Assembly (NCBI GenBank): GCA_965216795.1
Contig: OZ244196.1
Span: 2,650,368-2,714,367, forward strand
From: Pseudomonadales bacterium
GTDB lineage: Bacteria; Pseudomonadota; Gammaproteobacteria; Pseudomonadales; UBA7434
Direction: 5' to 3'
Length of the DNA: 64,000 bases
A program made the translations under genes and the position numbers. Of the stretch, positions 38,384 through 61,694 are shown piece after piece. Under the pieces are notes generated by a model that saw only the letters and a program-made list of their open reading frames with translations, had not been told where the DNA came from and did no database searches. Position 1 is the stretch's first letter. Every line of letters begins with the position of its first letter.

Positions 38384-40336
38384 TCAGTTTGGATCAAACC
38401 AGATAGGCGAGGTATAGGCACGTTCCTGGCCAAACTTGGGTGACTGTTCTGGCGCGGCTTCACCGAAGTGTTTCTCGTCAATGGTAGTCCATCGCGGTGT
38501 AGGAATCTCGAGTACCCTTGCGTAGTAAAACGCGCGAAGGTTTGGGTCAAAATCAGGGTCACGCCACACCACGCTCAGTGACGTGTCACCAATGGTGTTG
38601 GTATAACTGGCCGATGCGACATCGACGGTATTGCCCACCGGCTTGACCTTGTTCCGTTTGATTTTGCGACCGTCAGAAGCTGCGACGTTGTATACCTGCT
38701 CCTGGGTGTTGCCTTCGGCATCGACCCAGCCCTTGATGATCTGGATGCGATCGAGATTGGCGCCGATCGGGTCTTTCAGTGCTGAGACTATAAACGTGGG
38801 TGCCTTGTCGCCGCCCGGTGACTGGAGGGTTCCCCCCATGGGCACGCCATTGCGATAGGCATGGGTAACATAATCGTGGCGATCGACCGTGCTGTGGTCA
38901 TAGTCCCAGCCACCAAAAAAGCGCACCGTCATGCGTGGCCCGGTAGTCGCGTAGACTTCTTTGCGCTGCATCGCATCAAACAGCGCCTTGCGGGTGTTCT
39001 CGCGAGCCCAGACCGCTGCGTAGCCCGAAGATGCAGTCTCCCAGTGATGAACACTGATGCCAGAACCCGCATCGTCTTCAAAAAAGCTCTTATGCGCTCG
39101 CCCGGGCATGGGCTCGACCGACGTCATTTTGCCGAAGAAGTTATCTTCATCGCTGGTGGCAAGGCCGGTGTGCGAGTCGGTGCTGCCGATCATGCCGAAC
39201 TTGTAGGGGTTAACCCCGATTTGTTCTTCGAGCGCCAATCCATTTTTGAGCGCAGATCGCGCGTACTCAAACTCGAGCATGTTGTCTTCTTTTGCGGCCA
39301 GGAAAGACAGGTTGCTCATATCCCAGGTTTCATAATCGGCAAACTCGTCGCTGGGCGATAAAACCGGGTGTGCCTCGCCATCGCCCTTGATCTGGGTCAC
39401 CTCAATAATGGGCTCGTATTTCACGCGCAATGCGGCTTGCTCGGCGGTCAGGGGCTCGCCGGAAAAGGTGGTTTCGGCAAACATCAGGCCGTTGCTGACG
39501 TTGCCGTTGTGCGGAATCGACAGAACCCTGCCGCCGGTTGTGGATTCATAATTGGCCAGATATGCCCAGAGATCCTCCGGGTTGCCGCTATCCATTGATG
39601 AAAAGGGTACAACCTGTCCGGTTGTTTGCGCATCGTCGGCAAACAGCACATTGCGGTGCAGGTTGTTACCGCCCGGCATCGATGTGTATTCATAGCCAAT
39701 AAACGCCGTAAATGTGCCTGGCCGGTTATAGGCATCGGCCGTAGCGCCGACTTGCTTCCAGACAGACTCGACCACCGGGGCCGGTACCTCAAGGCCCTGC
39801 AGGGAGCGGATATGCTCAACGGTGATCCAGGAGCTCCCCTGGGTATAAATCTCGGGGTTTTCAGCGGTTGTTGCGCCCATGGACATGAGGCCGAACTCCA
39901 TCACAACGAGTTGGTGCTTTCCCTCGGCTACGTATTTGGCCCAGCGTTTGCCCAGGTTGGTCTCCGCGATATCGGGTGAGCCGGCAAATACCTTGGGGAA
40001 AATGCCCATAAACTCGGCGTGGTCCGACACCATCAAAAAGTCCAGTGGCCTTGCGAGTTTGGCCTTGACGCCCGTCTGGGAGGTGACCGTTTCGCCCATC
40101 GCAAAGCGATACGCATCTGCTGGCGTAATCGTGCGGTTGCCGAAGGTAAAAGCATCCGGAGACTGGTTGGTATGCAGGTGGGTATCGCCCCAAAAAACCT
40201 GGGCCGGAAAATCGTTGGCAACCGGCGGTGAGTATTCATGTTCTTTGGCCTGTGAGCCAGCCGTGGCAAGCACCAGGGCTGTAGAACACAGGAAGCTGCA
40301 AATTACTTTGATCGAACGCGCGCGCATATTAGACAT
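38384..40336 (-). CDS. Exported DUF3604 family protein (paralogue 1)
   Basis: 650 aa. Signal peptide; FWGDTHLHT metal-type motif; conserved C-terminus WRDPDFDP...YYARVLEIPTPRW...SPIW. Confidence 0.8.
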   Translation of the reverse strand: MSNMRARSIKVICSFLCSTALVLATAGSQAKEHEYSPPVANDFPAQVFWGDTHLHTNQSPDAFTFGNRTITPADAYRFAMGETVTSQTGVKAKLARPLDFLMVSDHAEFMGIFPKVFAGSPDIAETNLGKRWAKYVAEGKHQLVVMEFGLMSMGATTAENPEIYTQGSSWITVEHIRSLQGLEVPAPVVESVWKQVGATADAYNRPGTFTAFIGYEYTSMPGGNNLHRNVLFADDAQTTGQVVPFSSMDSGNPEDLWAYLANYESTTGGRVLSIPHNGNVSNGLMFAETTFSGEPLTAEQAALRVKYEPIIEVTQIKGDGEAHPVLSPSDEFADYETWDMSNLSFLAAKEDNMLEFEYARSALKNGLALEEQIGVNPYKFGMIGSTDSHTGLATSDEDNFFGKMTSVEPMPGRAHKSFFEDDAGSGISVHHWETASSGYAAVWARENTRKALFDAMQRKEVYATTGPRMTVRFFGGWDYDHSTVDRHDYVTHAYRNGVPMGGTLQSPGGDKAPTFIVSALKDPIGANLDRIQIIKGWVDAEGNTQEQVYNVAASDGRKIKRNKVKPVGNTVDVASASYTNTIGDTSLSVVWRDPDFDPNLRAFYYARVLEIPTPRWTTIDEKHFGEAAPEQSPKFGQERAYTSPIWFDPN

Positions 40337-40596
40337 AGCCAGCTCTCACCTGGGTTGGGTTGGGGGCATTTGCAGTGCCACTCAAGGGTAAATCTGCGGC
40401 CAATTCTAACGGATTTTCAAAACAAGAAGGAGTTCGTTTCTTTCATTTATTCCTCAGGCCGGGCGCTTGAAAAAGCACCGTATCTCTAGCAGCGATATCT
40501 GTGGGCTTTATCCGTGAAGGCCATTCAATGAACGGGTGCAGGGAAGGCGAATTCAGGTTACTCTAGGCGGAATTGGAGATACGGCAGGTATGATCA

Positions 40597-42441
40597 ATGC
40601 GAACGCCGACTGGAACGCCAACAAAAGCCAAAAAATGCTACGCACGTTCATTGGAATACTCCGCTCTTATTTTTACCACGTTACTGGTTAGCGGCGCGAG
40701 CATCGCGCTAGACACCGATGGCGATGGGCTTTCGAATACCGTCGAAACCAACACGGGCACCTTTGTTTCAGCTTCCGACACCGGCAGTGATCCGGTGGTT
40801 GCAGACACCGATATCGATGATTTTAATGACGGCATTGAGGTGTCATTGGGCACCGACCCGAATTCCGCACTGAATAGCCCGCGTGAAACGCACCTTGAGC
40901 CAGCTTACCCCGAAGTCTTTGGCCGCTTTGGTTTTAGCGTCGCGGTCGATGTCGACACGTCCGGCGCTTGCCAGATAAGGTTGGGCGCTAGTAGCGGTGT
41001 TGCCCAGATTTTTACAAGAGTAGGGGCGCAATGGTTGGAGCAAGGCCAGCTATTCACTGGCGGACTGGCCACCGGCCTGTTTTGCTGGAGTATCGCTTTG
41101 TCGGGTGACAGTGCCGCGATTGGCGCTCCGGGCGATGCGACCGGAGGCGTGGTTTATATTTTTGACCGGACGGGTTCCACCTGGCCATTCACCTCGACTC
41201 CTCTCGTTCCCGGCGATTCAGCAGGTGGCGATAGCTTTGGCTATGCCGTTGACATCGATGGTGACACGCTGTTCGTGGGCGCTCCGTTTGATGATGACAA
41301 TGGCAGCGCATCGGGCTCGGTCTACGTTTTCACGCGAACCGCCGGGGTTTGGAGCGAGCAAGCCAAGATTACCGCTGGCGATGGCACTGCCAACGACAAT
41401 TTTGGTCAAGACCTTGAATTCTCGGCAGGTTCGCTGATTGTCGGTGCGCCTGGTGATTCTGATAGTGCCAGCAATGCTGGGTCAGCTTACATTTTCACCG
41501 GCTCGGGGAGCAGCTGGACACAGCAAGCGAAACTTTCAGCGAGCACGCCCGCTGCCGATGATGCCTTTGGCACTGCAGTCAGTATTTCAAGCGATAGCGT
41601 ACTGATCGGCGCTCCTGGAGATGCTGCGAATGGCGCAGGTGCAGGTGCTGCCTATGTGTTCACGGGCTCCGGTTCATCCTGGGCCCAGCAGCAAAAATTG
41701 TTGCCCGGCGACGGTGCCAGTAATGATGTGTTTGGCGATGATGTTGCGCTCTGGGGAGAGGTTGCCGTCGTTAGTGCACCCTTTGATGATGGCCCCACCG
41801 ATTCAGGTTCAGCCTATGTTTTTTTACGCTCTGGCACAGCGTGGGTGCAAATTGATAAGTTCAAGCCCGCCGCTAGTGGGCAATCCGACAATTTTGGAGA
41901 GCGAATCGCTATTGATAATGGCACTGTAGCGCTTGGCGCTCCTACGCGGCAAGGTGCAACCGGCGCAGCTTATATCGTTGATCTGGACATCGATAAAGAT
42001 GGTTTGCTTAACGCGGTAGAGAGTGGCACTGGCATATTCGTATCGCAATTCGACACGGGGACTGACCGCCTCGACGCCGACAGCGATGAAGACAACGTCA
42101 TCGACGGCGATGAAACGCAAATTCATGGCACTGACCCGAATGCCAATGATACCGATGGGGACGGCATCCTTGATGATGCCGAGATTGCAATTGGTTGGAA
42201 CCCTTTGTCAGATGACATTGATAACGATGGCCTGACCGATGCTGAAGAGTCAGGCCTTGGTACTGACCCGCTACTTGCTGACACCGACATGGATGGCATT
42301 AGCGATGGTGATGAAATCGCGAGCGGCACGGACCCACTCATAGTTGATAACGGTACAAAGAGTGTTCCAGCAATGGGTGCGATGGGTTTATTTGCATTGA
42401 TGTTGGGGTTATTGTTTCTCGGCGTGAGGGTGAAGGCTTGA
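40597..42441 (+). CDS. Exported FG-GAP beta-propeller / TSP3-repeat protein with an IPTL/PEP-CTERM-like anchor (paralogue of 29666-32335)
   Basis: 614 aa with the same repeat types (GD...FG.AV.I.GDT..VGAP.DD....SGS.YVF; DTDGDG). C-terminus [26 protein letters not shown]. Confidence 0.8.
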
Positions 42442-42475
42442 AGCCTGATAGACCAGACCAAAATACGACAGAAGT

Positions 42476-43207: not shown

Positions 43208-43276
43208 CGGGCTTTTGGGCAGGCTTGTATATGCAAAAAATCCGCGATTACGTAGCCGGACTGGATCTGTCGTTGG

Positions 43277-44002: not shown

Positions 44003-44152
44003 GGCCATCTCCCTGTTCATTCACCTGGTGAGTGATCCAGGATTCAAACTAAACGAACGTTACCAGGCTTTCAAGTGACTTGGCCATTGGTGTGCGGCGC
44101 TTTCCCGTGTGGTTCCTGATTGGCACATAGGCAGCACTTGTAGTCTGCCTGA

Positions 44153-44453
44153 TTCCAGCCGCAATAACCCCATGAATAGTAAAGAGATTGGTGGGTATCA
44201 GGACTTGCTACGTGCCCTGGGGGTAATCCTGGGACCTGCCGATGACTACTTGGCCCATGGCTATGAGTCCAGCGAACAATACGTATCAGTCCCCATAAGC
44301 CTAAGCAATGTGAGAGGTTATCCGAAGGGCTTAATTGAGGCTTACCCCGACCGAAACATATCCGAACCTGCTGCCTGAGATTTCCTGGCCCGAGTGTTGC
44401 TGCGCTATGGACATCAAGGTCGGGGTGGGGTGGGCTGCCGAACCTGGGCCGAA
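44153..44453 (-). repeat. attP-like repeat unit, copy A (degenerate tRNA 3'-half fragment 44189-44269 plus L and R arms)
   Basis: L arm ttccagccgcaataaccccatgaatagtaaagagat. The tRNA-like core carries two 18-nt insertions. The R arm is colinear with copies C and D, including CCGAAM pairs at 44351/44362 and 44438/44449. Confidence 0.8.
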
Positions 44454-44680
44454 CCGCGCAATCAGGATAGCATGTCGTCATCTCAACTATCGGAAGTGGC
44501 CAGGCGCACGTTAGGTAACCCGAGTCTTCAGACAGAATACTCCCCGTTTCCAGTGCGCTCACCAAAACATCATGGGGGTCACACGGCTGTGGCCGCAGCT
44601 AACTGGACTATCTGAAAAGACAGTTGATTTTCTTCGCTAAAGAAGAACAATGTAGGCTTTCGCTCGCCACGAGAGAAACT

Positions 44681-46603
44681 ATGCAAAACAACCAGCTATG
44701 CGCTGTGTGGAGCCCCAATTCCCCCTCAAGGGACGATTTCGTTCTTTTTACTGCAATGATTGTTATATCACTCAGTGTTCTACTTACTGGGTGCGAGAGG
44801 CTTGATGATCCGTCGGTCCAGCCAGGTTTCGTTCAGGGCCAGGCTGTCAAATCTATGCAGCGTACGCCCGCACCTAAAAATACACAGAGAAATCTGTACT
44901 TTGGCGATTTGCATATACATACCAGCCTGTCAACAGACGCCTATGTTTTTGGCGTTCGCTCGCAGCCTGAAGACGTCTACACCTTTGCAAAGGGCGGCGT
45001 CATTGAGCATGCAGTGGGCTATCCTATCCAGATCGACCGTCCTCTGGATTTCGCTGCGGTAACTGATCACGCCGAGTACCTGGGTCAGGCTCGTTTGGCG
45101 GGCCTTGATATACCTACGAACATGCACCCGCTGCGCGATGTGCTTGCTGGCGGCAATGTCATTAGCGTGACAAAGCAGTGGTTGATTTCCAGTGCATTTG
45201 TGCTTCGAAAAGGTGCCGGCTATGGCGTCGACGAAATTGATCTGTCTGTGAATCGCGCTGCATGGCAGCAAGTTATTAACGCCGCAGAGGCGGCTAATGT
45301 ACCGGGAGAATTTAGCGCATTTATCGGCTATGAATGGACGTCGTTTGTCGATAACAATCCGTCGATTCACATTCATCGTAACGTTATATACCGTGGCAGT
45401 GATGTGTCTGATCTGCCGTATAGTGCACTTGATAGCAACCGGCCAGAAGATCTATGGAGGTTTCTTGAGGGTGAGCAGCTCGCTGGAAAAGAAGCGATCG
45501 CTATTTCACATAATGCGAACATTAGCGCCGGCAATATGTACTCGGTCGTGGATAGTGACGGGGAGCCGTTAACCGACGCATATGCACGATTGAGGAATCG
45601 CTATGAGCCAATTAGCGAGATCCTGCAGATCAAGGGCGCCTCAGAGACGCACCCGATGATGTCGAATCTCGATGAGTTCGCAAGCTTTGAGCTGCTGTCC
45701 AACAGTCCACCGGAAGACCAGCTGCAAGGCTCATACGCACGCAGCGGCTTGCGTCTTGGTCTGGAAACTTCAGCCCGGCAGGGATTTAACCCGTATCAAT
45801 TCGGTGTGATAGGGTCCAGTGACAGCCATAATGCCAGCTCTCCTTCTCAGGAGAATCGTTATCATGGCAAGCTGCCCGTGCTGGATGGAACCGCTGGCTT
45901 GCGCACCAACAAAGCACTGCTAATACCTGAGTTGATCAACCCCGCTATGCGCTGGGGATCGGGAGGGCTGGCAGCAGTTTGGGCGGAAGAGAACACGCGC
46001 GGTGCTGTGTTTGATGCGCTACGCCGCCGTGAGTGCTATGCAACCTCGGGTCCCAGAATCAGTGTGAGGCTATTTGGTGGCTGGCAGTATACCCAGGCCA
46101 TGCTTGACACTGGGAATGTTATTGAACAAGCCTACAAGCACGGTGTTCCAATGGGTGGGCAGCTGGGCCCAGCACCCAAAGACGGTGCCCCGACCTTTAT
46201 GATTATCGCGGCAAAAGACCCTGAAGGCGCAAACCTTGACCGTGTGCAGATTATTAAAGCGTGGGTCGATTCTGTCGGTGAGAGTCACGAAAAAGTTTAC
46301 GACGTGGCCGCAGCCGGTGGGCGGACAGTGAGCAAAGAGACAGGAAAACTAGAGCCTGTGGGTAACACGGTTGACGCAGCTGAGGCTAGCTACAGTAATA
46401 CAATCGGTGCGGCTTCGCTGGCGGCGATTTGGCGAGACCCTGATTTCGATGTGTCCAGTGAAGCTGTTTACTATGCGCGGGTCATCGAAATTCCCACGCC
46501 ACGATGGTCGACATACGATGCTAAATTGTTAGGCGATGAACCTATGAATCCAGCGTGGATTCAGGAGCGTGCCATTACATCGGCGATCTGGTATTCGCCT
46601 TGA
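44681..46603 (+). CDS. Exported DUF3604 family protein (paralogue 2; lipoprotein-like)
   Basis: YFGDLHIHT motif and C-terminus WRDPDFD...YYARVIEIPTPRW...SAIWYSP. Possible lipobox LLTGC. Start uncertain: TTG 44624, ATG 44681 or ATG 44756. Confidence 0.8.
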   Translation: MQNNQLCAVWSPNSPSRDDFVLFTAMIVISLSVLLTGCERLDDPSVQPGFVQGQAVKSMQRTPAPKNTQRNLYFGDLHIHTSLSTDAYVFGVRSQPEDVYTFAKGGVIEHAVGYPIQIDRPLDFAAVTDHAEYLGQARLAGLDIPTNMHPLRDVLAGGNVISVTKQWLISSAFVLRKGAGYGVDEIDLSVNRAAWQQVINAAEAANVPGEFSAFIGYEWTSFVDNNPSIHIHRNVIYRGSDVSDLPYSALDSNRPEDLWRFLEGEQLAGKEAIAISHNANISAGNMYSVVDSDGEPLTDAYARLRNRYEPISEILQIKGASETHPMMSNLDEFASFELLSNSPPEDQLQGSYARSGLRLGLETSARQGFNPYQFGVIGSSDSHNASSPSQENRYHGKLPVLDGTAGLRTNKALLIPELINPAMRWGSGGLAAVWAEENTRGAVFDALRRRECYATSGPRISVRLFGGWQYTQAMLDTGNVIEQAYKHGVPMGGQLGPAPKDGAPTFMIIAAKDPEGANLDRVQIIKAWVDSVGESHEKVYDVAAAGGRTVSKETGKLEPVGNTVDAAEASYSNTIGAASLAAIWRDPDFDVSSEAVYYARVIEIPTPRWSTYDAKLLGDEPMNPAWIQERAITSAIWYSP

Positions 46604-46622
46604 GGTCAAAAGTTGCCATCGA

Positions 46623-46722
46623 CTCCAGCCGCAATGACCCTATGAATAGTAAAGAGAATGGTGGGCCCACCAGGACTTGCTACGTGCCCTCGGGGTAAAC
46701 CTGGGACCTGCCGATTATGAGT
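46623..46722 (-). repeat. attP-like repeat unit, copy B (L arm + tRNA 3'-half fragment; R arm missing)
   Basis: ctccagccgcaatgaccctatgaatagtaaagagaa, then the tRNA 3' half with the 18-nt T-loop insertion (46680-46697). Homology stops abruptly after ...gattatgagt. Confidence 0.85.
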
Positions 46723-46932
46723 AATTAGCCTACCGTATTTACTGAGATTGATCTACGTTGATTTAGATCGATATTGGAATCAATTCAATCACTTGGTCTT
46801 TTACCTGGGTCTATCCAGGTTGATACAGATTGATTTCATCTGCTTACATAGCGCTTACACGCATTTGATAATATGTCTGCCCAATTTGATATACGCCAAC
46901 CGGTACTTGAACTATAATTCTTGGTGTGATAT

Positions 46933-49245
46933 ATGCTGGGTGCGCGCGCTACTCTGCTCAGCCATAACAAAAAGGAGATAATCTCGCTCAGGATTATGCC
47001 GATGCCCCAGATCTTAAGAAAAGACCTTTATCTTAAATTTAGACTTCAGCGCGTCTTGGTGTCAGGAGTGTTAAAAGTTCTAGCAGGCTTATATTGTCTT
47101 GCACTCCAGCACGCAGCCATAGCGGCTGCGCTCGACCCCGACGACTTTACCTCACTGGGGACGCTTAACCTGGCGAGTGGCGATTACACTTTTGATACCA
47201 CGGCGATGACGATCGTTGAAAACAGCGCGCCAGGCACCGTACTGTTTACCGGTGTTGAGGACGACCAGAACGGTCAGGCCGACAGCTTTGCGGGTGGTAG
47301 CGATACAGTAGGTGTTAATGGCATTCCACATATCGCAGTCTTTACCTTTGATGACATCAACATTGATGGGACCAACAGTATTACCATCACCGGTAATCGA
47401 GCTATTGCGCTGTTATCAAAGAGCAATTTCTATCTGGATGAAACGCTATCGGTGGATGCCGTGCCGGCCCCTGCCCCAGATGCGCCGGAAGCGCAGTTTG
47501 GTGGCAAAGCTGGCCCTGGCGGCTTTGACGGCGGTACGCCCGGCATCAACAATGGCGATGGTGAGGGGCCAGGTGGCGCGCTTGGCAATGATGGTTTTAC
47601 TGGCGCACACGGCGCAAGTGGAGGATTCGGTGGTGATGGGGTTGGCCCCTTGCCAGGCCTATTAGGCATGTCCTACGGTGATCTGCTGCAAGCACTGCAA
47701 GGTGGAAGTGGCGGCGGTGATAGCGATGATTTTTTGACCCCTGAAAATCGAGGCCCCGGTGGTGGTGGTGGTGGCGCGATCATGCTGGTTGCCAGCCAGG
47801 CAATAACCATCGACAGCAATGGCGTTGTCAGCGCACAAGGAGCGGATGGTTACCAGCGAGAACCCCCCTCCATACCGGGGTTTACAGGATTATACGGGGG
47901 TGGCGGTAGTGGTGGTGGGATTATCCTGTCGGCACTAAACGTAGTCATTAACGGCCAGCTATTAGCAAAAGGGCTCGACGGCAGCGGTACTTACACTGGC
48001 GGTGGTGGCCGTGTGTTGGTCGCAGGCTATAACAGCTTCCTGTTCGGTAGCACGCCTGACGTCAACAGTTTTATCGCCAATATCGACGTCGACCCTCCTT
48101 TTGCATCCGCTGAGGGCGGATGGATTTCTGTGGTGCCTCGCACAACACTCGTCTCATTTGGCGAGTCGCTGGCACTTAACAACGCAACCATTCAGATTCA
48201 GGGCAACATCGGAGCTCCCGGTGTCGAATTCATACCAGGCAACCTTGTTGCAACAGGCGAGCTTACCGTGCCTGCTGGAGGCACGAGCTACGCGTTTGAC
48301 ATTAGCCTTACCGGTCCAACCGAAACCACCGTTATTAACGGCAACGATCCGCTACAAATCCAGACGTCGCTATCAGGTTCCGGCACGGTCAACGTACCAC
48401 TGGTGATCGACGCCGATGCCGAGCTGAATATGGTTAATGATGAGCTCACCTTTCAGGGCGACGGCATTGCCAACGACGACGGGCTGGTAAACAACGGCAC
48501 CATGAACCTGATCAACGCAATTATCAATGGTGATGTACGCTCACCGGCTGGGTCACAGATAAACGTTGCAGGTAGTGCGACATTTAACGGCCTGTTTTCA
48601 GGTGCCGGTACATTTTCGGGCACTAGCAACCTGGTCACCTTTAACGGCGGCTACTCACCCGGTGATAGCCCTGCGGCTATTAACTTTGGTGGCGATGTGT
48701 CGTTGAGTTCAGGGAACACGCTGCTGATGGAGATCTTCGGCAGCGTTGCGGGCAGTGGTTACGACCAGCTCACTGTTGCCGGTAACCTGGCAATGAATGG
48801 CGTGATCGATTTATTTGTTGATCCGCTGTTAACACTCAACGCGGGCGACAGCTTTACTTTGCTCAACTGGAGCTCGGTCGCAGGCGAGTTTGCATCGGTG
48901 CTTGGCATTCAACAAGCAAATGATCTGGACATCGGTATTCGTTATAACGCCGGCAATATGGTGGCTAAGGTTGTGCCGCGTGGTGACGTGAATGATGACG
49001 GCGTTGTTAACGGTGATGACCTGGCGATTATTGCCAGCAATGCAGGCGTGAACACAAGCAGCTACTTTAGCGGCGACGTAAACGGCGATGGCGTGGTCGA
49101 TAATTCCAGCAATTCTGGCTCAGACCGATCGTTAGTCGAGGCGGCTATTCTCAATGCGAATACCCAAACTGTACCTCTGCCTTTCTGGCTGCCATTGATA
49201 CTGTTGATGGGCGCTACCATTACGTATAGGTTGAGTGCCCGGTGA
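46933..49245 (+). CDS. Large exported glycine-rich (beta-helix-like) protein with dockerin-like Ca-binding repeats and a VPLP-type C-terminal anchor
   Basis: 770 aa. Gly-rich blocks (GGFGGDG, GPGGGGGGAIML, GGGGSGGGIIL). GDVNDDGVVNGDDL and GDVNGDGVVDN dockerin/EF-hand-like repeats. C-terminus TVPLPFWLPLILLMGATITYRLSAR. Start uncertain (46933 or 46996). Confidence 0.65.
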   Translation: MLGARATLLSHNKKEIISLRIMPMPQILRKDLYLKFRLQRVLVSGVLKVLAGLYCLALQHAAIAAALDPDDFTSLGTLNLASGDYTFDTTAMTIVENSAPGTVLFTGVEDDQNGQADSFAGGSDTVGVNGIPHIAVFTFDDINIDGTNSITITGNRAIALLSKSNFYLDETLSVDAVPAPAPDAPEAQFGGKAGPGGFDGGTPGINNGDGEGPGGALGNDGFTGAHGASGGFGGDGVGPLPGLLGMSYGDLLQALQGGSGGGDSDDFLTPENRGPGGGGGGAIMLVASQAITIDSNGVVSAQGADGYQREPPSIPGFTGLYGGGGSGGGIILSALNVVINGQLLAKGLDGSGTYTGGGGRVLVAGYNSFLFGSTPDVNSFIANIDVDPPFASAEGGWISVVPRTTLVSFGESLALNNATIQIQGNIGAPGVEFIPGNLVATGELTVPAGGTSYAFDISLTGPTETTVINGNDPLQIQTSLSGSGTVNVPLVIDADAELNMVNDELTFQGDGIANDDGLVNNGTMNLINAIINGDVRSPAGSQINVAGSATFNGLFSGAGTFSGTSNLVTFNGGYSPGDSPAAINFGGDVSLSSGNTLLMEIFGSVAGSGYDQLTVAGNLAMNGVIDLFVDPLLTLNAGDSFTLLNWSSVAGEFASVLGIQQANDLDIGIRYNAGNMVAKVVPRGDVNDDGVVNGDDLAIIASNAGVNTSSYFSGDVNGDGVVDNSSNSGSDRSLVEAAILNANTQTVPLPFWLPLILLMGATITYRLSAR

Positions 49246-49340
49246 AGCCGACAGGTTTGTTGGCGCTCGAGCTGAGCGGGCGATAAAAGTAATCAGTTCA
49301 GGACAGTCTTGGCCGTATTGATCCCTGAGGGTACGCCAGA

Positions 49341-49575
49341 TTGAAAAATGAATGGTGGGCCCACCAGGACTTGCTACGTGCCCTCGGGGTAAACCTGGGA
49401 CCTGCCGATTATGAGTCCAGCGAACAATACGTGCCCATCTCCATAAGTCTAAGAAGTGGGAGGGGTTATCGGCGGGGTATCTCTGGGGCTTTCTTCGACC
49501 GAACCATATCCGAACCTGTCGCCTTGAGAGTCGCGTGCCTGAGTGTCACCCCGCTGAGGGCATGTGGCCGAAGGC
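49341..49575 (-). repeat. attP-like repeat unit, copy C (truncated L arm + tRNA 3'-half fragment 49353-49417 + R arm)
   Basis: tRNA 3' half with the 18-nt insertion (49374-49391). The R arm is colinear with A and D, with a ~20-nt internal deletion near its end. Confidence 0.85.
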
Positions 49576-49790
49576 TCTCTCATTCTCCTAAGTTGTTGAT
49601 ATCCTGGGCTAATTAACTCCTTCCCCATCCCCTGAGATTGCCTCAGAAGCAGCATTGGCTGCGTCCTGCAGCGTGCCAGTGGACAGGTGAGTCGACTGCT
49701 GTACGCCTGTTGGCTACATATTGACGGCTAGCTGCGAATTGAAGATACTGGTTGCACCCCTTGGCTCCGAATGACAACGGAGCACCTCCC

Positions 49791-50504
49791 ATGCCTGCCA
49801 CTAACGTGCCTGCGTCCATTACGGTTGTTAGACAGGCGAGCCCGATTTTCTTGAGCGCCCAGCTGCTGCGCAGGGACTTCCTGGCGATTTTGCTGCTTGT
49901 GAATGTCTCGATGGCGCAGGCGTATGTTGAAGCGCCGCGCGTGATGTCTGCCCAATTGACAACGTATCAGTCCAGTATCAGTTATCTGATACACAATGAT
50001 TCGGATTGGCTTCTGGACCAGCTCGGTATGCAGTTTGCTGGCGTCCTGCCACTGGGCACCTATGCACTCGATTTATCTTATGATTGGGATTCGTTGCGCG
50101 ATATCTATGATGATGATCCCACATTCGATGAGATCATGGGCCCCCAGTGGGATCTTTTCGTCAGGTTTTGGTTCGATTCTCGTGATGATCCTCTCTATCC
50201 CGGTGAGTCTTTCACCCTGACGATCGATTTCAATAGCGCATTGCTGGCTGCAGAATATGGTGTTACGGATATCAGGCAGCTGAACACTGCTTTCTACTCC
50301 GGAGTGCTGGGCGGTTCTAACGCAGAGCATGGCGTTGAAACCCCTGTCGAGTTGCTGGAGGTGCCGGTGTTCCCAGAGCGTATCGTCGTCCCTCTGCCGG
50401 GGTCTTTCGGATTGCTACTTGCCCCGATGTGTCTTTTGGTTTACCTGCGGCGCCCATGGAGTCGGGCGCACCGCTCACAGAGTCGGCTGCTCCAGCCGCA
50501 ATAA
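49791..50504 (+). CDS. Hypothetical exported protein with a VPLP-type (PEP-CTERM-like) anchor
   Basis: Start at ATG 49791 (GGAG RBS). C-terminus VVPLPGSFGLLLAPMCLLVYLRRPW. The stop codon lies inside the L arm of repeat D. Confidence 0.55.
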   Translation: MPATNVPASITVVRQASPIFLSAQLLRRDFLAILLLVNVSMAQAYVEAPRVMSAQLTTYQSSISYLIHNDSDWLLDQLGMQFAGVLPLGTYALDLSYDWDSLRDIYDDDPTFDEIMGPQWDLFVRFWFDSRDDPLYPGESFTLTIDFNSALLAAEYGVTDIRQLNTAFYSGVLGGSNAEHGVETPVELLEVPVFPERIVVPLPGSFGLLLAPMCLLVYLRRPWSRAHRSQSRLLQPQ

Positions 50505-50757
50505 CCCTATGAATAGCAAAGAGATTGGTGGGCCCACCAGGACTTGAACCTGGGACCTGCCGATTATGAGTCCAGCGAACAATAAGAACCCGTCTTCATA
50601 AGTCCAAGAAATGGGAGGGGTTATCCCGGAGCCCTCATTAGGGTTCACGCCGACCGAACCATATCCGAACCTGTCGCCTTGAAAAACGCTCGCCCGAGTG
50701 TCACTGGGCTATGGGCATCAAGGCTGGGGAGGGGAGGGTTGCCGAAACTGGACCGAA
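50489..50757 (-). repeat. attP-like repeat unit, copy D (L arm + exact tRNA 3' 47 nt at 50526-50572 + full R arm)
   Basis: The 47-nt core is identical to the tRNA gene 3' end, with no insertion. CCGAAM pairs at 50654/50665 and 50742/50753. Confidence 0.9.
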
Positions 50758-50793
50758 ATTCGAGAGGTATTCTGTGGATAGGGCCATGTTAGA

Positions 50794-51432
50794 TTATTTC
50801 TTTTCTGCAGAAAGTATGGATACAACCGTCTCAATCATTACAGAAATAAATGTGTCTCGATACCTTTTGTCGTTTTCAGGCGACTCTTGAATTAGTGCAC
50901 AGTAGTCGGCAAGGTTGGTGACTACCAAATTTCGAATGGTGCGATACCGAATAGTTTTTTCAGTCTCTGGTACCCCTTCTAAGCTGTTTGATAGCAGCGC
51001 ACTTAAATCTGATAAAGATGAGTAGGAGCGTTGGTCTTCAGATTCTACCGGATTCATCTGGTGCCCATCCATGAGCGCGAGTATCCGCAAGTAGGCTCTT
51101 CCATCATCTTTGTTGTCCAGTTCACCTATCAGCGGTAATAAAAGTACCTTGGCCGTTTCTTCCAGGCTAGGTGTTGGGCCGAAGACATTCAACAGTTTCT
51201 GCCGGCGTTGCTCTATACCTGATCTGTGCTTATCAAAAATGGCCTGTAAGAGGCCGGCCTTGTTCTCGAAGTGGTAATTGAGTGCGGACGCATTGCGCTG
51301 ACCAGAGGCTTTCACAATTTCATTCATTGACACGGCGTCAATGCCACGTGCAGCCATTAGCTTCATTGCGGTACGCAGAATTTTGGCCTTGGTCTGTCTG
51401 GCGGCTTCTTCCTTTTTGCAATTCATTGGCAT
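50794..51432 (-). CDS. TetR family transcriptional regulator (low-GC islet)
   Basis: 212 aa with a TetR HTH (KILRTAMKLMAARGIDAVSMNEIVKASGQRNASALNYHF). Confidence 0.8.
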   Translation of the reverse strand: MPMNCKKEEAARQTKAKILRTAMKLMAARGIDAVSMNEIVKASGQRNASALNYHFENKAGLLQAIFDKHRSGIEQRRQKLLNVFGPTPSLEETAKVLLLPLIGELDNKDDGRAYLRILALMDGHQMNPVESEDQRSYSSLSDLSALLSNSLEGVPETEKTIRYRTIRNLVVTNLADYCALIQESPENDKRYRDTFISVMIETVVSILSAEKK

Positions 51433-51468
51433 ACCAGGTCCGATTACATTAAATCCAGCTTTATTGAT

Positions 51469-51515
51469 AATGAAGTCTCATTATAATAACCTACCAAAAT
51501 TAATGAGATCTCATT
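51469..51515. promoter_or_regulatory. Two copies of a 14-bp palindrome (candidate TetR operators) in the divergent promoter
   Basis: aatgaagtctcatt (51469-51482) and the perfect palindrome aatgagatctcatt (51502-51515), 33 bp apart, between the TetR and MBL genes. Confidence 0.5.
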
Positions 51516-51632
51516 AGAATATTCATGGGTAGATGGTGGCGTAAGCCATTGAAATAATAAGGTTTATCGGTTTTGGGCCTGGGTTCATATCCTGAAGCCA
51601 CACAGTTGACGACATATATTGAGGCAATAGTT

Positions 51633-53015
51633 ATGCGGCAGTTAGTGCAATTCACAGCGGTAATTTTTGGTTCTCTGCTGGTAATCAATGCTATGGCTGG
51701 TTCGGGCGTCGATGTCCATTCCGAAGAGTACCAGAATGTGCGTGTTCCCAAGGACTTCAATGGCCGCGCTAGTGACATCATGCTCTATAAGCCGAAGTTG
51801 GAAAAGATTAGCGATGAAGTCTATGTCGCGTCTGGTACGGGTAATGCGTTTCTGGTGAAAACGCCGGAAGGGAATGTTATTTTTGATACAGGCGTCCCCT
51901 GGCAAGGGGAGGCGCTTAGGGAACTTCTGCTTTTCGTTGGTCATGAAAAAACGACACATATTATTGTTTCACATGCGCACGGTGATCATATGGGCGGGCT
52001 CACGGCCTGGCAGCAGGAGATCAATGATGGCGCTGAAATTATCGCGCATAGTCGTTATCCATATACCAACAAGATATACGGGGATACCGATGTTTATCTA
52101 TGGCAACAACGAACGGCATCTATTTACCCATCACCGGGGACGGGGGCTGCAGAAATGGTTCGACAGGCTAGGGCGATCGAGCCGACCCGTTTGGTTTATC
52201 CAGACCATGACTACAGCTTTACTGTTGGCGGTGTAGAGTTTGTTGTCATCGCTATGCAGGGAGGCGCAGAAGGTGAAGATAACCTGGTACTTTGGTTGCC
52301 GGAGCAGGAAGTTGCTTTTACTGGCGATTTGTTCGGCCCCCTGTATCCTATGGTGCCAAACTTGTACACAGTGCGGGGTGAAAAGCTGAGAGATCCGCTG
52401 GCCTACATTGACGCGCTTGATCGAATGATAGAGCTTGAGCCTAGTATCATGCTCCCGAGCCATTTCGGTGCTGTTAAAGGGAAAAACTATATCCACAAAT
52501 CGCTGACTGTGACTCGTGACGGGACAGAATATGTCTACAAAGAAACTGTTAAGGGGATGAACGAAGGTAAGAGTGTCTACGAGTTGATGGAATCTGTACG
52601 GCTTCCTGAATCACTTGAAATCAGCCAGGGACATGGAAAGACGTCCTGGAATGTTAGGGCAATTTGGGAATTGCTAGCGGGTTGGTTTTACTTTGATACC
52701 GTTGCTGACCTGTACTCTGTTCCTGTCAGTGCTGTTTACGCCGACATTGTTGAGCTTGTAGATGGCCCAGACAAGCTGATTGCTAGCGCTGAAAGATATG
52801 CTTCAGAAGGCGACAACCTTAAGGCAATCAGGCTATTGGATATAGCTCAGGGCGCCGGACAGGAAACTACGGATGCCATCAAATTACGTGTAAAACTTTA
52901 CTCTGCACTTATTGAGGAGTCTAAAGATACGCACAGCAATGTCAGTTTGGATGATATTCTCGAGGCGGCGTTGAGGTCATCAAATGCTGAATTGAAAAAA
53001 CGTGCTGACAAGTAA
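51633..53015 (+). CDS. Exported MBL-fold metallo-hydrolase, alkyl/aryl-sulfatase-like
   Basis: Start at ATG 51633 (GAGG RBS; signal MRQLVQFTAVIFGSLLVINAMA). HAHGDHMGG metallo-beta-lactamase motif. Helical C-terminal domain reminiscent of the alkyl-sulfatase dimerisation region. Confidence 0.65.
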   Translation: MRQLVQFTAVIFGSLLVINAMAGSGVDVHSEEYQNVRVPKDFNGRASDIMLYKPKLEKISDEVYVASGTGNAFLVKTPEGNVIFDTGVPWQGEALRELLLFVGHEKTTHIIVSHAHGDHMGGLTAWQQEINDGAEIIAHSRYPYTNKIYGDTDVYLWQQRTASIYPSPGTGAAEMVRQARAIEPTRLVYPDHDYSFTVGGVEFVVIAMQGGAEGEDNLVLWLPEQEVAFTGDLFGPLYPMVPNLYTVRGEKLRDPLAYIDALDRMIELEPSIMLPSHFGAVKGKNYIHKSLTVTRDGTEYVYKETVKGMNEGKSVYELMESVRLPESLEISQGHGKTSWNVRAIWELLAGWFYFDTVADLYSVPVSAVYADIVELVDGPDKLIASAERYASEGDNLKAIRLLDIAQGAGQETTDAIKLRVKLYSALIEESKDTHSNVSLDDILEAALRSSNAELKKRADK

Positions 53016-53177
53016 TTGTGGGTCTTTGATGCTTGTTGTCTACACTGCGGTTCGAGAATGCGCGTCAAAACGATGCCTATGGGCATAAGTCACGATAGCG
53101 TCGCAGCTATGGTGCCAGAATGCACACTCAAAAGTATGGTCCTTTTATTTCTATAACCTTAAGAAATCAAAGAAGAT

Positions 53178-53254
53178 TGGTGGGCCCACCAGGACTTGAA
53201 CCTGGGACCTGCCGATTATGAGTCGGATGCTCTAACCAACTGAGCTATGGGCCC
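53178..53254 (-). tRNA. tRNA with anticodon CAU (Met or, more likely, lysidine-type Ile2)
   Basis: 77-nt cloverleaf read by hand: GGGCCCA-TA-GCTC-AGTTGGTTA-GAGC-A-TCCGA-CTCATAA-TCGGC-AGGTC-CCAGG-TTCAAGT-CCTGG-TGGGCCC-ACCA. C4 and C5 in the acceptor stem match the remembered E. coli ileX. Confidence 0.9.
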
Positions 53255-53439: not shown

Positions 53440-53457
53440 CGGTAAACGCCAAGGCGA

Positions 53458-54423: not shown

Positions 54424-54492
54424 TGTGACTCTCCCGTGGGCCCACGGCTGTGCGGGCTGTTAGGTGGGGCGGTTTCCAGCGGCTAACTTAGC

Positions 54493-54523: not shown

Positions 54524-54570
54524 GAAATTATCGTTAATGTCGTGTGCAGCGCACAATAAATGGCCTGCCG

Positions 54571-56382
<1,812 letters not shown>

Positions 56383-58502: not shown

Positions 58503-58524
58503 GCCTGTGCCTGCGTTGCCGGGC

Positions 58525-58977
58525 CTAGCCCAGCTTGGCCTTGATGGCAGCGCTCACCGCACCCATGTCAGCACGGCCCTGCAGCTGTGGTTTGAGCACA
58601 GCCATCACCTTGCCCATGTCGCGCATGCTCTCGGCGCCTGTGCTGGTAATTGCCTCTGCGATTAACTGCTCAATCTCGGCAGCGTCGAGCTGGGCGGGCA
58701 TGAAGCCCTGGATGACCTCCATCTCACTGCGTTCCTGGGCGGCCAGTTCATCGCGGCCGGCCTTTTCAAACTGTTCGATGGAGTCGCGACGCTGCTTGAG
58801 CATTTTATCGAGCACCGCAAGGATGCGAGCGTCGTCCAGCTCGATGCGCTCATCGACCTCGATGCGCTTGATCTCGGCGAGCATCAGCCGAATCGTTGCC
58901 AGCCGCTCTTTTTCTTTTGCGCGCATGGCCGCTTTCATGGCGGTATCGATTTCAATCCGTTTTTCAGCTTTGCTCAC
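58525..58977 (-). CDS. yqeY: GatB/YqeY domain protein
   Basis: Start placed at the in-frame GTG 58977 (VSKAEKRIEIDTAMKAAMRAKEKERLATIRL...), giving 150 aa, typical of YqeY. The longer ORF would run into the hairpin element. Confidence 0.75.
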   Translation of the reverse strand: MSKAEKRIEIDTAMKAAMRAKEKERLATIRLMLAEIKRIEVDERIELDDARILAVLDKMLKQRRDSIEQFEKAGRDELAAQERSEMEVIQGFMPAQLDAAEIEQLIAEAITSTGAESMRDMGKVMAVLKPQLQGRADMGAVSAAIKAKLG

Positions 58978-59046
58978 AATAACGATCTCGATGCAGTTCG
59001 GCGGTATTTCCGCATTATATATGCCCCAAAAGCATTGCGGGGGCGA

Positions 59047-59155
59047 GTTCTGTGCTTGAGCTATCAGGTCGGGAACGTCGCCCGCACGGATGCGGGCGCC
59101 GAGCGTGCAGGACGCATTCAAAGCGATTCCCGACCTGATAGCTCAAGCACAGAAC
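59047..59155. repeat. Long-hairpin element 1 (29-bp perfect arms, 51-nt core)
   Basis: gttctgtgcttgagctatcaggtcgggaa ... ttcccgacctgatagctcaagcacagaac. The core contains the sub-hairpin cgcccgca-cgga-tgcgggcg. Confidence 0.85.
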
Positions 59156-59210
59156 GGCGGCTCACTATGTAAAGGCCTGTTGATCAGGCTGGGGGCGGAA
59201 TCCCGGCCGC

Positions 59211-59302
59211 GCAAAGCCCTTTGACGAGAACCGCTGTGAATGCATCCATGCACGCTCAACGCCCGCATCCCTGCGGTCGATGTTCTCGTCAAAGGGCTTT
59301 GC
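59211..59302. repeat. Long-hairpin element 2 (21-bp perfect arms, 50-nt core homologous to the reverse complement of core 1)
   Basis: gcaaagccctttgacgagaac ... gttctcgtcaaagggctttgc. Core cgctgtgaatgcatccatgcacgctcaacgcccgcatccctgcggtcgat aligns to the reverse complement of core 1. Confidence 0.85.
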
Positions 59303-59445
59303 ACAGCCGGAACTCCTTTGCTCTGCAAATTCGGGACGTAGCTATGTCTGGCGCCAAAACGCCGTAGGGAAATATCAGTGTTGGAAAGCGCTCGAACCAG
59401 GCCGGCTCGAGCGCTAAAAGTCGCTGGGGAGGGGAGAGCGTCGGC

Positions 59446-59661
59446 CTAGTAGAGGCGAACGCGTGAACGCATCTCGCGGCTGACTTTCTTCTGGTGACGC
59501 TTCACCGCAGCAGCGGCTTTGCGCTTGCGCACCGACGTGGGCTTCTCGTAGAACTCGCGGCGGCGGGCTTCGGCGATGACGCCGGCTTTTTCACAGGAGC
59601 GTTTGAAGCGACGCAGCGCGATATCAAACGGCTCGTTATCTTTGACTTTGACTTGCGGCAT
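59446..59661 (-). CDS. rpsU: 30S ribosomal protein S21
   Basis: 71 aa: [27 protein letters not shown]... Confidence 0.95.
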
Positions 59662-59795
59662 TCAATAGACCTTCGCAACAGGTTGATTTTTCTGGCGCTG
59701 GCGCCCAGCGCGATATACAGCCTAGCGCAACCGGGGCGGTGCTGCCCGGGGCGCAAGGCGCGGCATTCTATACAGGCTGGCGGAAAATTGCAAAA

Positions 59796-61694
59796 TCAGC
59801 GTGGGGCGGCCTGCTGGCTGGCCTGGTACCAGATCGGCGAACTCCAGGCCCGCTCCTGGATCGTCCGCTGGAGCTGGCTGGATTGGCACCAGTTGGGCAG
59901 TTTTGCCCGCTCTTCGGCCGATTTGCCGGCGCTGGTGCAGGCCCAGTCGGTGCTGCGACAGCTGGGGTTCTCCACCACCCGGGCGTAGTAGACCGCGTCC
60001 TGGGCGGGGTCGAAATCGGGGTCGCGCCACAGCGTGCACAGGCGGGCGTGGCCGGGGCCGCGGGGCTTGCAGCTGTCCAGGTCGACACTGGCCTTATTGG
60101 GCCCGCCGGCGATATCGATCACCTGCTGGTGCAGCTGGCCATCGCTGTCGGTCCAGCCCTTGATGATCTGGGCCCGCTGCAGCGCCGTGCCCGGATGTCG
60201 GGGCGTGCCTGGGTCCTGGCTGGCGACCAGCAGGAACTGCGGCGCCTGGTCTGCGAGCGTTCCGGCATCGAGCTTGCCGCCCATCGGCACGCCATCGCGG
60301 TAGGCCCCGGCCAGCCAGTCACTGCGGGCGCAGCTGTCGCTCTCGAACGAGGGGCCGGCGAACAGGCGCAGGGCAATGCGCGGCCCGCTGGTGCCATAGG
60401 CCTCGCGACGGCGCATTGCATCAAACAGTGAGGCGCGCGAATTCTCCTCGGCCCAGACCGCCACCAGGCCGCCGTTGTTGCGACCCTGGCGCGGGTTAGG
60501 TTGGTTGCCCGGCAGGTCGCGGCGCCACTCCTCGACGCTGCCCGGCGTCGCATCGTGGGTATCGGTCGAGGCGATAAAGCCCAGCTGGAAGGGGTTGATG
60601 CCCAGTCGCTGCTGTTCTTTGAGGCCCTCAAGCAGGGCATAGCGCGCAAAGTCCTGGGTCGCCACGCAGCCTTCATCCAGCAGCGAACCCACGCCCGTAT
60701 TGCGTTGGCACTGCTCGGTATCCGGCAGGCGCAGCTTTTCAAAGTTGCACAACTCGTCGTTGCCGCCGAGCACATTCCACATGCCGTTGCGACACTCAGA
60801 GTCGCCTTTCATCTGCATCATTTCAACCAGGGGCTCGATACGGGCACGCAGCGCCGCCAGTTCGCGCTGGGCGTCGATATCCAGTGCCGGGTCAGGCACA
60901 GTCGTAAACAGGTTGCCGTTCGACAGGTTGGGGTTGTGGGGAATCGCCAGCACGTCGCAGCCGTTGTCGGCATCCATGCATTCATCGCGCAATCGCTGCC
61001 AAAGCACGGTCTCATCCGGTTCGTCGTTATAGCTGATCGGCCGCTCGATCACGGTCTCGTTCTTGAAAATGACGTTGCGGTGGATCTTGGTCAGCTCGGG
61101 GTTGGCGGTGTACTCGTAGGCGACAAAGGTTGAAAACGCACAGCTGTCGGTCTCGTCCTGGTGGCGGGCCGCCGCAGCCTGGATCTGCTGCCAAATCTGC
61201 AGCTCGACATCGCGGCACAGCGCGCCGTCTTTGCCGCATACCTCGGCGTTCGACAGTCGGCCGCCGGTCTGCTCCACCATCCGCCGGACGATTTCCTTGA
61301 CGTTCTTGGCACCGCGCAGATCGACCGGGCTGCGAAAGCGCTCGCAGGTTTCGCTGCTGTAGGCGGGGCTGTCCGGGTCGGCGCACAGCCGGGTGGCGCC
61401 CGCATCCGAGGCGTGGTCGGTGGTGGCGGCAAAGTCCAGCGCGCGTTCCAGCTGCACGCTGTGCGCGCCGGGCTTCAGTGCAATGGCTTCGCCTTTGGCG
61501 AAGCGATAGGCATCGTCCGGGGTATTGCGGGTGCCAAAGGTCCAGGCGTCCATCGACAGCGCGGTATGGACATGCAGGTCGCCCCAGAACAGCTGGCGCA
61601 GCGGCTCATGATCGGCGCAGCGCGGGTCTGCTGCAAAGGCTTTGACTTGGCATACAATGGCCAGCAGGATGGGCAGGCTATGGCGCGGCAGCAT
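59796..61694 (-). CDS. Exported DUF3604 family protein (paralogue 3)
   Basis: 632 aa. Signal peptide; LFWGDLHVHT motif; C-terminus WRDPDFDP..DAVYYARVVENP...SSPIWY. Confidence 0.8.
   Translation of the reverse strand: MLPRHSLPILLAIVCQVKAFAADPRCADHEPLRQLFWGDLHVHTALSMDAWTFGTRNTPDDAYRFAKGEAIALKPGAHSVQLERALDFAATTDHASDAGATRLCADPDSPAYSSETCERFRSPVDLRGAKNVKEIVRRMVEQTGGRLSNAEVCGKDGALCRDVELQIWQQIQAAAARHQDETDSCAFSTFVAYEYTANPELTKIHRNVIFKNETVIERPISYNDEPDETVLWQRLRDECMDADNGCDVLAIPHNPNLSNGNLFTTVPDPALDIDAQRELAALRARIEPLVEMMQMKGDSECRNGMWNVLGGNDELCNFEKLRLPDTEQCQRNTGVGSLLDEGCVATQDFARYALLEGLKEQQRLGINPFQLGFIASTDTHDATPGSVEEWRRDLPGNQPNPRQGRNNGGLVAVWAEENSRASLFDAMRRREAYGTSGPRIALRLFAGPSFESDSCARSDWLAGAYRDGVPMGGKLDAGTLADQAPQFLLVASQDPGTPRHPGTALQRAQIIKGWTDSDGQLHQQVIDIAGGPNKASVDLDSCKPRGPGHARLCTLWRDPDFDPAQDAVYYARVVENPSCRSTDWACTSAGKSAEERAKLPNWCQSSQLQRTIQERAWSSPIWYQASQQAAPR

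Follow-up and report, generated by a model that had tools for sequence, protein, structure and literature searches.

How three diverged genes of one protein family came to lie within 23 kb, and what they encode, is the question raised by a 64,000-nucleotide stretch of the Pseudomonadales bacterium contig OZ244196.1 (positions 2,650,368 to 2,714,367), here called the window. The genes, referred to as A, B and C, belong to the DUF3604 family. They represent, we believe with some confidence, three ancient subfamilies and encode exported, PHP-type metal-dependent ester hydrolases. An earlier sequence-only reading of the window had described the three genes, each in a different genomic context, and had seen in them a hint of a role in periplasmic or surface processing; the three contexts were confirmed here, whereas the proposed role was not.

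DUF3604 membership and subfamilies

The three genes are located as follows.

38384 to 40336, minus strand: DUF3604 copy A; 650 aa, predicted Sec-type signal peptide, predicted PHP-fold barrel and C-terminal beta-sandwich, 2 Cys
44681 to 46603, plus strand: DUF3604 copy B; 640 aa, predicted from its lipobox LLTGC to be a lipoprotein, alone in a cassette with a tRNA-Met half-site at either end
59796 to 61694, minus strand: DUF3604 copy C; 632 aa, predicted Sec-type signal peptide, member of a Cys-rich subfamily in which 18 Cys are conserved

The reading frames are present at these coordinates with uninterrupted translations, and A, B and C are intact, full-length DUF3604 proteins. The family assignment made in the sequence-only reading, for which a profile search had been proposed, was borne out by the Pfam hidden Markov model (HMM) PF12228, which matched the three proteins end to end (from profile position 2 or 3 to position 590 or 591 of 591) with scores of 808.5 bits for A, 678.4 bits for B and 542.5 bits for C, well over the gathering cut-off of 20.4 bits. 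The Pfam scan to E <= 10 reported DUF3604 only, with no second domain in any of the proteins, and no fourth copy was found by tblastn across the window. BLASTP comparisons yielded identities of 41% for A and B (E 6e-159), 33% for A and C (E 1e-100) and 37% for B and C (E 2e-106); this is homology and not a chance similarity. Among the motifs that the earlier reading had listed as shared, the N-terminal GD.H.HT (VFWGDTHLHT in A, LYFGDLHIHT in B and LFWGDLHVHT in C) and the C-terminal WRDPDFD...YYARV are common to all three copies, while SPIW is present in A and C only and is replaced by SAIW in B. The lengths, motifs and predicted export signals are all typical of the PF12228 family of bacterial proteins of about 600 aa, from which A, B and C do not differ at the family level; within the family, A is of a soluble type, B of a type predicted to consist of lipoproteins and C of a type with 18 Cys. 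They are additional members of an already known family.

Each copy had about 120 listed relatives at 49-68% identity, plus closer orthologs, and these were only 31-47% identical to the other two copies. Orthologs of A were found at 90% and 80% identity, and both A and C have relatives at 80-90%, whereas the best non-self relative of B is 65% identical. The best-named relatives were from Halioglobus, Parahaliea and metagenome-assembled genomes of Pseudomonadales. In a neighbor-joining tree of 77 sequences the A, B and C groups were each monophyletic, and a profile-profile comparison of the A and C groups gave a probability of 100% at 36% identity. The GC content at third codon positions (GC3) is 0.66 in A, 0.53 in B and 0.82 in C, as compared to 0.70-0.82 in core genes such as rpoD, dnaG and rpsU.

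The C subfamily is set apart by its cysteines. In a sample of 26 members, 17 of the 18 Cys were present in every sequence and the remaining one, Cys26, in 96%, while none were present in the relatives of A and B; all 18 were invariant in an alignment of 33 C-type sequences (alignment A4). This suggests that C-type DUF3604 proteins may contain about nine disulfides.

Clusters of DUF3604 genes are also found elsewhere. Among 71 A-like loci from other genomes, 10 contained at least two full-length copies (two or three), and locus L087 (metagenomic ENA contig NODE_105, 74.6 kb) contained four in 14 kb, among genes for P450, aldehyde dehydrogenase, short-chain dehydrogenase/reductase (SDR), DUF1214 and GH5-like proteins. 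Two copies each were present in L085 and in L089/L090, with acyl-CoA ligase, WS/DGAT, Abhydrolase_10 and MFS genes. Since such clustering is common elsewhere, three copies in 23 kb are unremarkable for the lineage and ordinary for DUF3604. Both the short distance between A, B and C and the frequency of such clusters could be taken as indicative of a recent duplication in this region, but the mutual identities of 33-41% as compared to 49-90% to relatives in other organisms, the three monophyletic clades, the differences in GC3 and the C-specific 18-Cys signature make this scenario extremely improbable. We rejected it on the basis of the subfamily identities and the tree. Judged from their sequences, A, B and C are three separate, ancient DUF3604 subfamilies and not local duplicates. 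The phylogeny that had been proposed to separate duplication from horizontal transfer thus identified three old lineages, with signs of horizontal acquisition in B only.

The family as a whole is large. A profile search of 1.84 billion representative proteins retrieved 14,945 DUF3604 clusters at E <= 1e-3 and 2,878 at E <= 1e-30, the clusters being defined at 50% identity. A scan with one genome per species retrieved at least 596 relatives, from Gamma- and Alphaproteobacteria, Acidobacteriota, Planctomycetota, Gemmatimonadota, Bacteroidota, Myxococcota and Chloroflexota. DUF3604 is among the larger bacterial families of unknown function, with an expansion in marine Gammaproteobacteria involved in the turnover of organic matter. 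The statement of the sequence-only reading that no function has been assigned agrees with the searchable literature, in which we found nothing on DUF3604 beyond an incidental mention in a Chlamydia transposon table: CT_425/CTL0684 of Chlamydia trachomatis is annotated as DUF3604 and tolerated a transposon insertion (PMC11925237). The window enlarges the family by three members, one of which was most likely carried horizontally on a tRNA-Met islet, and leaves the view of the family unchanged.

Predicted fold, metal site and export

No solved structure was detectable by sequence: neither A alone nor a profile of 32 sequences retrieved a meaningful match from the PDB, and the top match, a segment of LSD1 at E 0.2, was discarded as spurious. 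For A and C, AlphaFold (AF2) models were generated with alignments of the respective subfamilies as input and compared to the PDB using Foldseek. The models had predicted local distance difference test (pLDDT) scores of 86.1 for A and 90.4 for C, and predicted template modelling (pTM) scores of 0.87 and 0.91, respectively. The top match was the same for both, 3e38, with a probability of 1.00 and E-values of 2.3e-6 for A and 3.3e-5 for C, followed in both cases by the PHP domain of RNase AM (7ug9, probability 0.93-0.94). The last ~150 residues of the models matched Ig-like beta-sandwiches. From these models, the DUF3604 fold is predicted to be a PHP-type (beta/alpha)7 barrel with large helical insertions, followed by an Ig-like beta-sandwich. 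The two-domain plan of barrel and sandwich is shared with 3e38, which is BVU_3505 from Bacteroides vulgatus, a predicted PHP-like metal-dependent phosphoesterase. However, 3e38 has 342 residues and DUF3604 proteins 630-650, with ~300 extra residues of insertions, and the two are only 9-11% identical with no detectable similarity at the sequence level.

The suggestion in the earlier reading that the HxH motif marks a PHP-like metal site is in line with these matches and with the residue conservation. In a mixed alignment of 32 sequences (A, B, C and 29 relatives), the residues H53, H55, D61, D105-H106, E216, H227, H276, D387 and H389 (numbering of A) were invariant, and so were the C-numbered equivalents H41, H43, D49, H94, E194, H205, H253, D378 and H380 in alignment A4. 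Nine of these invariant residues (all of those listed except D105) are located at or directly after predicted barrel strands in both models, and their ordered pattern, HxH..D..H..E..H..H..DxH, agrees with that of the PHP trinuclear metal site. In YcdX of E. coli, the metal ligands are H7, H9, H15, H40, E73, H101, H131, D192 and H194. DUF3604 is similar to such classical PHP phosphoesterases (YcdX, histidinol-phosphate phosphatase and RNase AM/YciV) in its nine ordered ligand-like residues and in the structural match to 7ug9, but differs from these cytoplasmic proteins of ~250 aa in being unmatched by the Pfam PHP model and in having Asp at the third position. With the site assigned by sequence order and strand positions, the nine residues are most likely the ligands, as yet putative, of a PHP-type trinuclear metal site. 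On the basis of fold and motifs, and not of a match to the PHP HMM, we conclude that A, B and C are probable PHP-fold metalloenzymes.

Signal peptides were judged by eye and with a hydropathy heuristic, and gave the same picture as in the earlier reading, which had assigned export signals to all three proteins. The N-terminus of A has a basic n-region and a hydrophobic core in a putative Sec-type signal ending SQA|K; C has the same layout with a signal ending AFA|A, and B has the lipobox LLTG|C. The N-terminal hydrophobic segment was present in more than 90% of the relatives, Tat motifs were rare, and a lipobox was identified in 74 of 118 B-subfamily relatives. The frame of B as called mechanically extends back to a TTG at 44624, but the ATG at 44681 is the likelier start since it has GAGAGAAAC just before it. 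Most likely, A and C are periplasmic via a Sec signal and B is lipid-anchored, as far as can be read from the N-termini. The 18 Cys conserved in the C subfamily point to disulfides and hence to an oxidizing compartment.

Gene neighborhoods and candidate function

To survey the neighborhoods, we called open reading frames (ORFs) in 80 loci around A-like genes, clustered the neighbors and scanned the cluster representatives as well as all 135 immediate neighbors against Pfam. Partner genes were counted in the 71 loci from other genomes, 53 of which had enough downstream sequence to judge. The sole strongly recurrent partners form an operon in which DUF3604 is followed by a PPIC-type peptidyl-prolyl isomerase (PPIase)-like gene (Rotamase_2) and a gene for a HupE_UreJ_2 membrane protein. 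The PPIase-like gene was present in 25, the HupE gene in 20 and both in 19 of the 71 loci, and the operon was found across several phyla (L007, L016, L022, L057, L060, L062, L072, L076 and others). Rarer neighbors included sulfatases (11 loci), TonB-dependent receptors (8 loci), AraC regulators, MscS channels, enoyl-CoA hydratases, SDRs and acyl-CoA dehydrogenases. Overall, the catabolic genes near DUF3604 comprise SDR, P450, aldehyde dehydrogenase, alpha/beta hydrolase, acyl-CoA ligase, enoyl-CoA hydratase and acyl-CoA dehydrogenase genes, and the uptake and regulatory genes encode TonB-dependent receptors, Phenol_MetA_deg channels, MFS transporters and AraC/TetR regulators. Genes of the phosphate regulon, such as pst and pho, were absent from the recurrent neighbors in the 80 loci.

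Because the signals appear to be of the Sec or lipoprotein type rather than Tat, DUF3604 proteins would cross the membrane unfolded and take up divalent metals in the periplasm. Such periplasmic metal loading would fit the operon partners, given that the PPIase is chaperone-like and membrane-anchored and that the permease belongs to the HupE/UreJ family, which is associated with nickel and cobalt transport. The frequent operon with HupE_UreJ_2 and the multi-histidine site could also be explained if DUF3604 were no hydrolase but a periplasmic protein for metal binding, storage or sensing that works with the permease. We consider this most unlikely, given that ~15,000 clusters keep the complete set of PHP catalytic residues along with many other invariant polar residues, that the family has diversified to many paralogous subfamilies per genome, as is typical of enzymes with different substrates, and that most copies, including A, B and C, are without a permease partner.

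In the hydrolase interpretation, metal-activated water would hydrolyze an ester bond of an imported organic substrate, and cytoplasmic oxidoreductases, such as the SDR kept next to C, would then take over the products. The different subfamilies presumably have different substrates. As to the type of ester, we tentatively prefer a catabolic hydrolase acting on carboxyl or carbamate-type esters, since the contexts are rich in genes for uptake and oxidation of organic substrates and have no phosphate-regulon genes. There is a precedent in McbA, a periplasmic carbaryl hydrolase with a PHP-like domain and essential histidines (PMC8292978), in which periplasmic PHP chemistry on a carbamate or carboxyl ester feeds cytoplasmic catabolism. 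All three proteins weakly matched the NCBIfam model of the CehA/McbA metallohydrolases, NF038032 (22.6 bits for A, 15.7 for B and 17.6 for C; E 6e-5 to 8e-3). However, no carbaryl or naphthol pathway genes are located nearby, and by these scores A, B and C are distant relatives of the CehA/McbA family at best and not members of it.

The main alternative is phosphoester hydrolysis, the classical chemistry of PHP domains, and DUF3604 proteins might instead be periplasmic phosphoesterases or nucleases that scavenge phosphate from organophosphates or extracellular nucleic acids. This would agree with the annotations of the top structural matches, PHP phosphoesterase for 3e38 and RNase AM PHP domain for 7ug9, and the many invariant Arg and Lys residues (R228, R304, K317, R360, R449 and R468) could bind an anionic group. 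Yet phosphate-regulon genes do not recur in the 80 loci, oxidoreductase genes and genes that serve the uptake of hydrophobic substrates predominate in the contexts, and 3e38 has no demonstrated substrate, its PDB title reading "predicted". Overall, a phosphoesterase function seems rather unlikely.

Several points weigh against the assignment of A, B and C as exported, PHP-type catabolic ester hydrolases. The TM-scores to 3e38 were low, 0.44-0.48 on the target for the models of A and C, which we attribute to the large insertions, DUF3604 being almost double the length of 3e38. The ligands were assigned by their order and by predicted strand ends, and the Pfam PHP model PF02811 did not match A, B or C even at E <= 10, so the relationship of DUF3604 to PHP is at the level of fold and motifs only. 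The scores of 16-23 bits on NF038032 are well under its cut-off of 80 bits, and the signal-peptide calls are heuristic only. No PPIase-like or HupE homolog was found in the window by tblastn, so that none of the three copies has these partners. The neighborhoods are heterogeneous and SDRs are abundant in these genomes, which makes the preference for catabolic esters weakly constrained. Finally, the searchable literature yielded no biochemical or genetic data on any DUF3604 protein.

The family has nevertheless gained a number of handles: the predicted periplasmic PHP-type metal site, the three subfamilies, the operon with a chaperone and a metal permease, and the SDR partner of the Cys-rich subfamily. 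In its widest and, to us, doubtful form, the argument would make DUF3604 an unrecognized major class of periplasmic trinuclear-metal hydrolases with a PPIase and HupE/UreJ maturation module, with subfamilies, among them the one with nine disulfides, that would contribute to marine carbon turnover by acting on different esters in the environment, and with single genes that would be mobile as integrase-less mini-cassettes at tRNA-Met half-sites. Among the by-products, those of greatest use are the scheme of three subfamilies, the subfamily with its putative nine disulfides, the operon with PPIase and HupE genes, and the array of tRNA-Met mini-cassettes that carries B.

Genomic contexts of the three copies

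B is located in an array of four cassettes of 1.1-2.6 kb each, which spans positions 44151-53254 and ends at an intact tRNA-Met gene.

44151 to 44453: left junction of the B cassette; degenerate copy of the tRNA-Met 3' half (~44191), flank and conserved segment of ~200 nt (repeat families D1, D3, D5 and D6, alignment A2)
Cassette 1 of the array (44.2-53.2 kb): B alone
46621 to 46722: right junction of the B cassette; exact 45-nt tRNA-Met 3' half split by an 18-nt insert (46660-46722), and conserved flank
Cassette 2: 770-aa Gly-rich protein with dockerin-like repeats
49340 to 49563: third junction; tRNA-Met 3' half with the 18-nt insert (49354-49416), then the conserved segment
Cassette 3: 250-aa unknown protein
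50488 to 50757: fourth junction; uninterrupted 45-nt tRNA-Met 3' half (50527-50571), then the conserved segment
Cassette 4: TetR gene and gene for an alkylsulfatase-like protein of the metallo-beta-lactamase (MBL) fold
53178 to 53254, minus strand: intact tRNA-Met(CAT), anchor of the array (ARAGORN; Rfam tRNA, 73.2 bits), with its 3' end facing the island

The repeated 45 nt correspond to the 3' part of tRNA-Met from the anticodon loop to the acceptor end and occur in three exact copies and one degenerate copy, where 0.02 or fewer matches to a 45-nt tRNA half would be expected by chance. Copies on both flanks of B support the description of this gene as a tRNA-islet cassette in the sequence-only reading. 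The GC3 of the array is 0.48-0.61, below that of the core genes, and domain scans identified no integrase, recombinase or other mobility gene in any ORF of 40-54 kb.

The array looks like the product of serial site-specific integration of integrase-less islets, to judge by its repeats. In tRNA-linked islands, successive integrations leave cargo cassettes separated by partial tRNA copies beside the intact tRNA (bioRxiv 10.1101/2020.12.28.424599). The array of B resembles the tycheposon-bearing islands of marine bacteria in having cassettes and partial tRNA copies next to an intact tRNA, but differs in the lack of a mobility gene in 40-54 kb, in cassettes of only 1-2.6 kb and in the 18-nt T-loop insert of three fragments. 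Given its GC3 of 0.53, the flanking tRNA-half repeats and the lack of relatives above 65% identity, horizontal acquisition of B through serial site-specific integration, as in such islands, is most likely, and the gene probably arrived as the single-gene cargo of an islet targeting tRNA-Met.

The 18-nt insert (CTACGTGCCCT[C/G]GGGGTA) lies in the would-be T-loop and is common to the fragments at 44191-44265, 46680-46697 and 49374-49391, while it is missing from the fragment at 50527-50571 and from the live tRNA-Met. Since the insert is found in three fragments only, simple displacement of functional 3' halves is no explanation. Three of the fragments are followed by the non-coding segment of ~200 nt (44262-44453, 49410-49563 and 50565-50757), which is conserved at 77-83%. 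This segment gave no RNA-fold signal, and had no exact match in metagenome contigs; its only Rfam match, to Plastid-ycf2 at 50528-50605, was sub-threshold and lay for the most part on the tRNA half-copy. Two ORFs that overlap the repeats, 44071-44565 on the minus strand and 49341-49616 on the plus strand, are probably not genes.

The 770-aa protein of the second cassette (46933-49245, plus strand) contains a Gly-rich stretch and matched no Pfam family above threshold, but has dockerin/EF-hand-like DxNxDG repeats (Dockerin_1, E 0.015). At its C-terminus, VPLP is followed by a hydrophobic helix and a basic tail, an arrangement similar to PEP-CTERM-type sorting signals, which NCBIfam did not confirm. 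The cassette adjoining the live tRNA-Met (50794-53015) encodes TetR and an exported MBL-fold protein with an alkyl-sulfatase dimerization domain, and its genes have the lowest GC of any in the window (GC3 0.48).

A is transcribed divergently from the gene that the earlier reading had described as encoding an FG-GAP surface protein.

40597 to 42441, plus strand: protein that contains FG-GAP_2 (six repeats) and TSP3_bac repeats and terminates in a hydrophobic helix plus basic tail (Pfam and translation); divergent from A, GC3 0.53

From this gene onward, GC3 falls to 0.48-0.61. The neighbors of the closest orthologs differ: in L083 (90% identity to A), two FG-GAP/TSP3 genes and the same DUF4197 gene adjoin, whereas L082 (80%) has genes for an alpha/beta hydrolase, SDRs, a cupin, AraC and an acyl-CoA ligase around it and no FG-GAP neighbor. 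The drop in GC3 and the differing neighbors place A at the edge of a variable region; A itself was probably inherited vertically.

The pairing with surface proteins had led the sequence-only reading to hint that DUF3604 processes or matures neighboring surface or C-terminally anchored proteins, such as the FG-GAP/TSP3 and the Gly-rich dockerin-like protein, at the cell surface. The divergent gene next to A, the two adjoining FG-GAP/TSP3 genes in L083 and the 770-aa protein with its hydrophobic and basic tail in the cassette after B all fit this idea. However, no FG-GAP, TSP3 or C-terminally anchored protein recurred among the 135 immediate neighbors of A-like genes, and the proposed enrichment of anchored neighbors was not seen, since anchor-like tails, identified with a crude heuristic, were present in 1 of 130 near genes and 0 of 391 far genes. 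Signal-bearing neighbors were more frequent near (27%) than far (14%, p=0.002), but the excess vanished without the PPIase-like and HupE partners (19% near and 14% far, p=0.23). Moreover, the 80% ortholog of A has no such neighbor, B and the 770-aa gene are in separate cassettes bounded by tRNA halves, and no such proteins were present at the B- and C-subfamily loci examined. Neither the FG-GAP protein nor the 770-aa protein had an NCBIfam match to a CTERM sorting domain, and their anchoring is putative. We regard surface processing as very unlikely, and a pairing with surface proteins as a property of the family was rejected on the neighborhood counts.

C is part of a block between tsaD and rpsU, two genes that are adjacent and divergent in E. 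coli.

59446 to 59661, minus strand: rpsU, which starts the rpsU-yqeY-dnaG-rpoD block and is separated by 134 nt from the end of C
61735 to 62565, plus strand: SDR oxidoreductase (Pfam), divergent from C; orthologs in the same position in L081 (88%) and L084 (71%)

Beyond the SDR gene follow a gene for a 190-aa glycine-zipper protein and then tsaD, which runs off the window, such that three genes (C, SDR and the 190-aa protein) separate tsaD from rpsU in the segment 59662-63190. Between C and rpsU there is a sigma-70-like promoter match (59794-59765), and no terminator-like site was seen there. The position of C immediately upstream of rpsU is as the earlier reading had stated, but its description as an insertion needs to be qualified in that the arrangement is old. 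The order tsaD-small protein-SDR|DUF3604-rpsU-yqeY-dnaG is the same in L084, which contains an ortholog of C with 62% identity; the block is conserved in L084 and L081, with orthologs of the SDR and the small protein at 69-88%. The conserved order around the L084 ortholog indicates that the insertion between tsaD and rpsU is old, and C would thus sit in an ancient, conserved insertion.

At the more distant C-type loci, L085 and L086, an SDR gene is again located immediately upstream and in divergent orientation. In L085 the adjacent SDR is 29% identical to that of the window and the next gene out is closer, with 47%. In L086 the upstream SDR is a fragment of 141 residues, 43% identical to the window SDR over 97 aa, and a second SDR gene is located immediately downstream of DUF3604. 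The synteny of C and SDR is clear in the closer relatives, and farther out only an adjacent SDR recurs.

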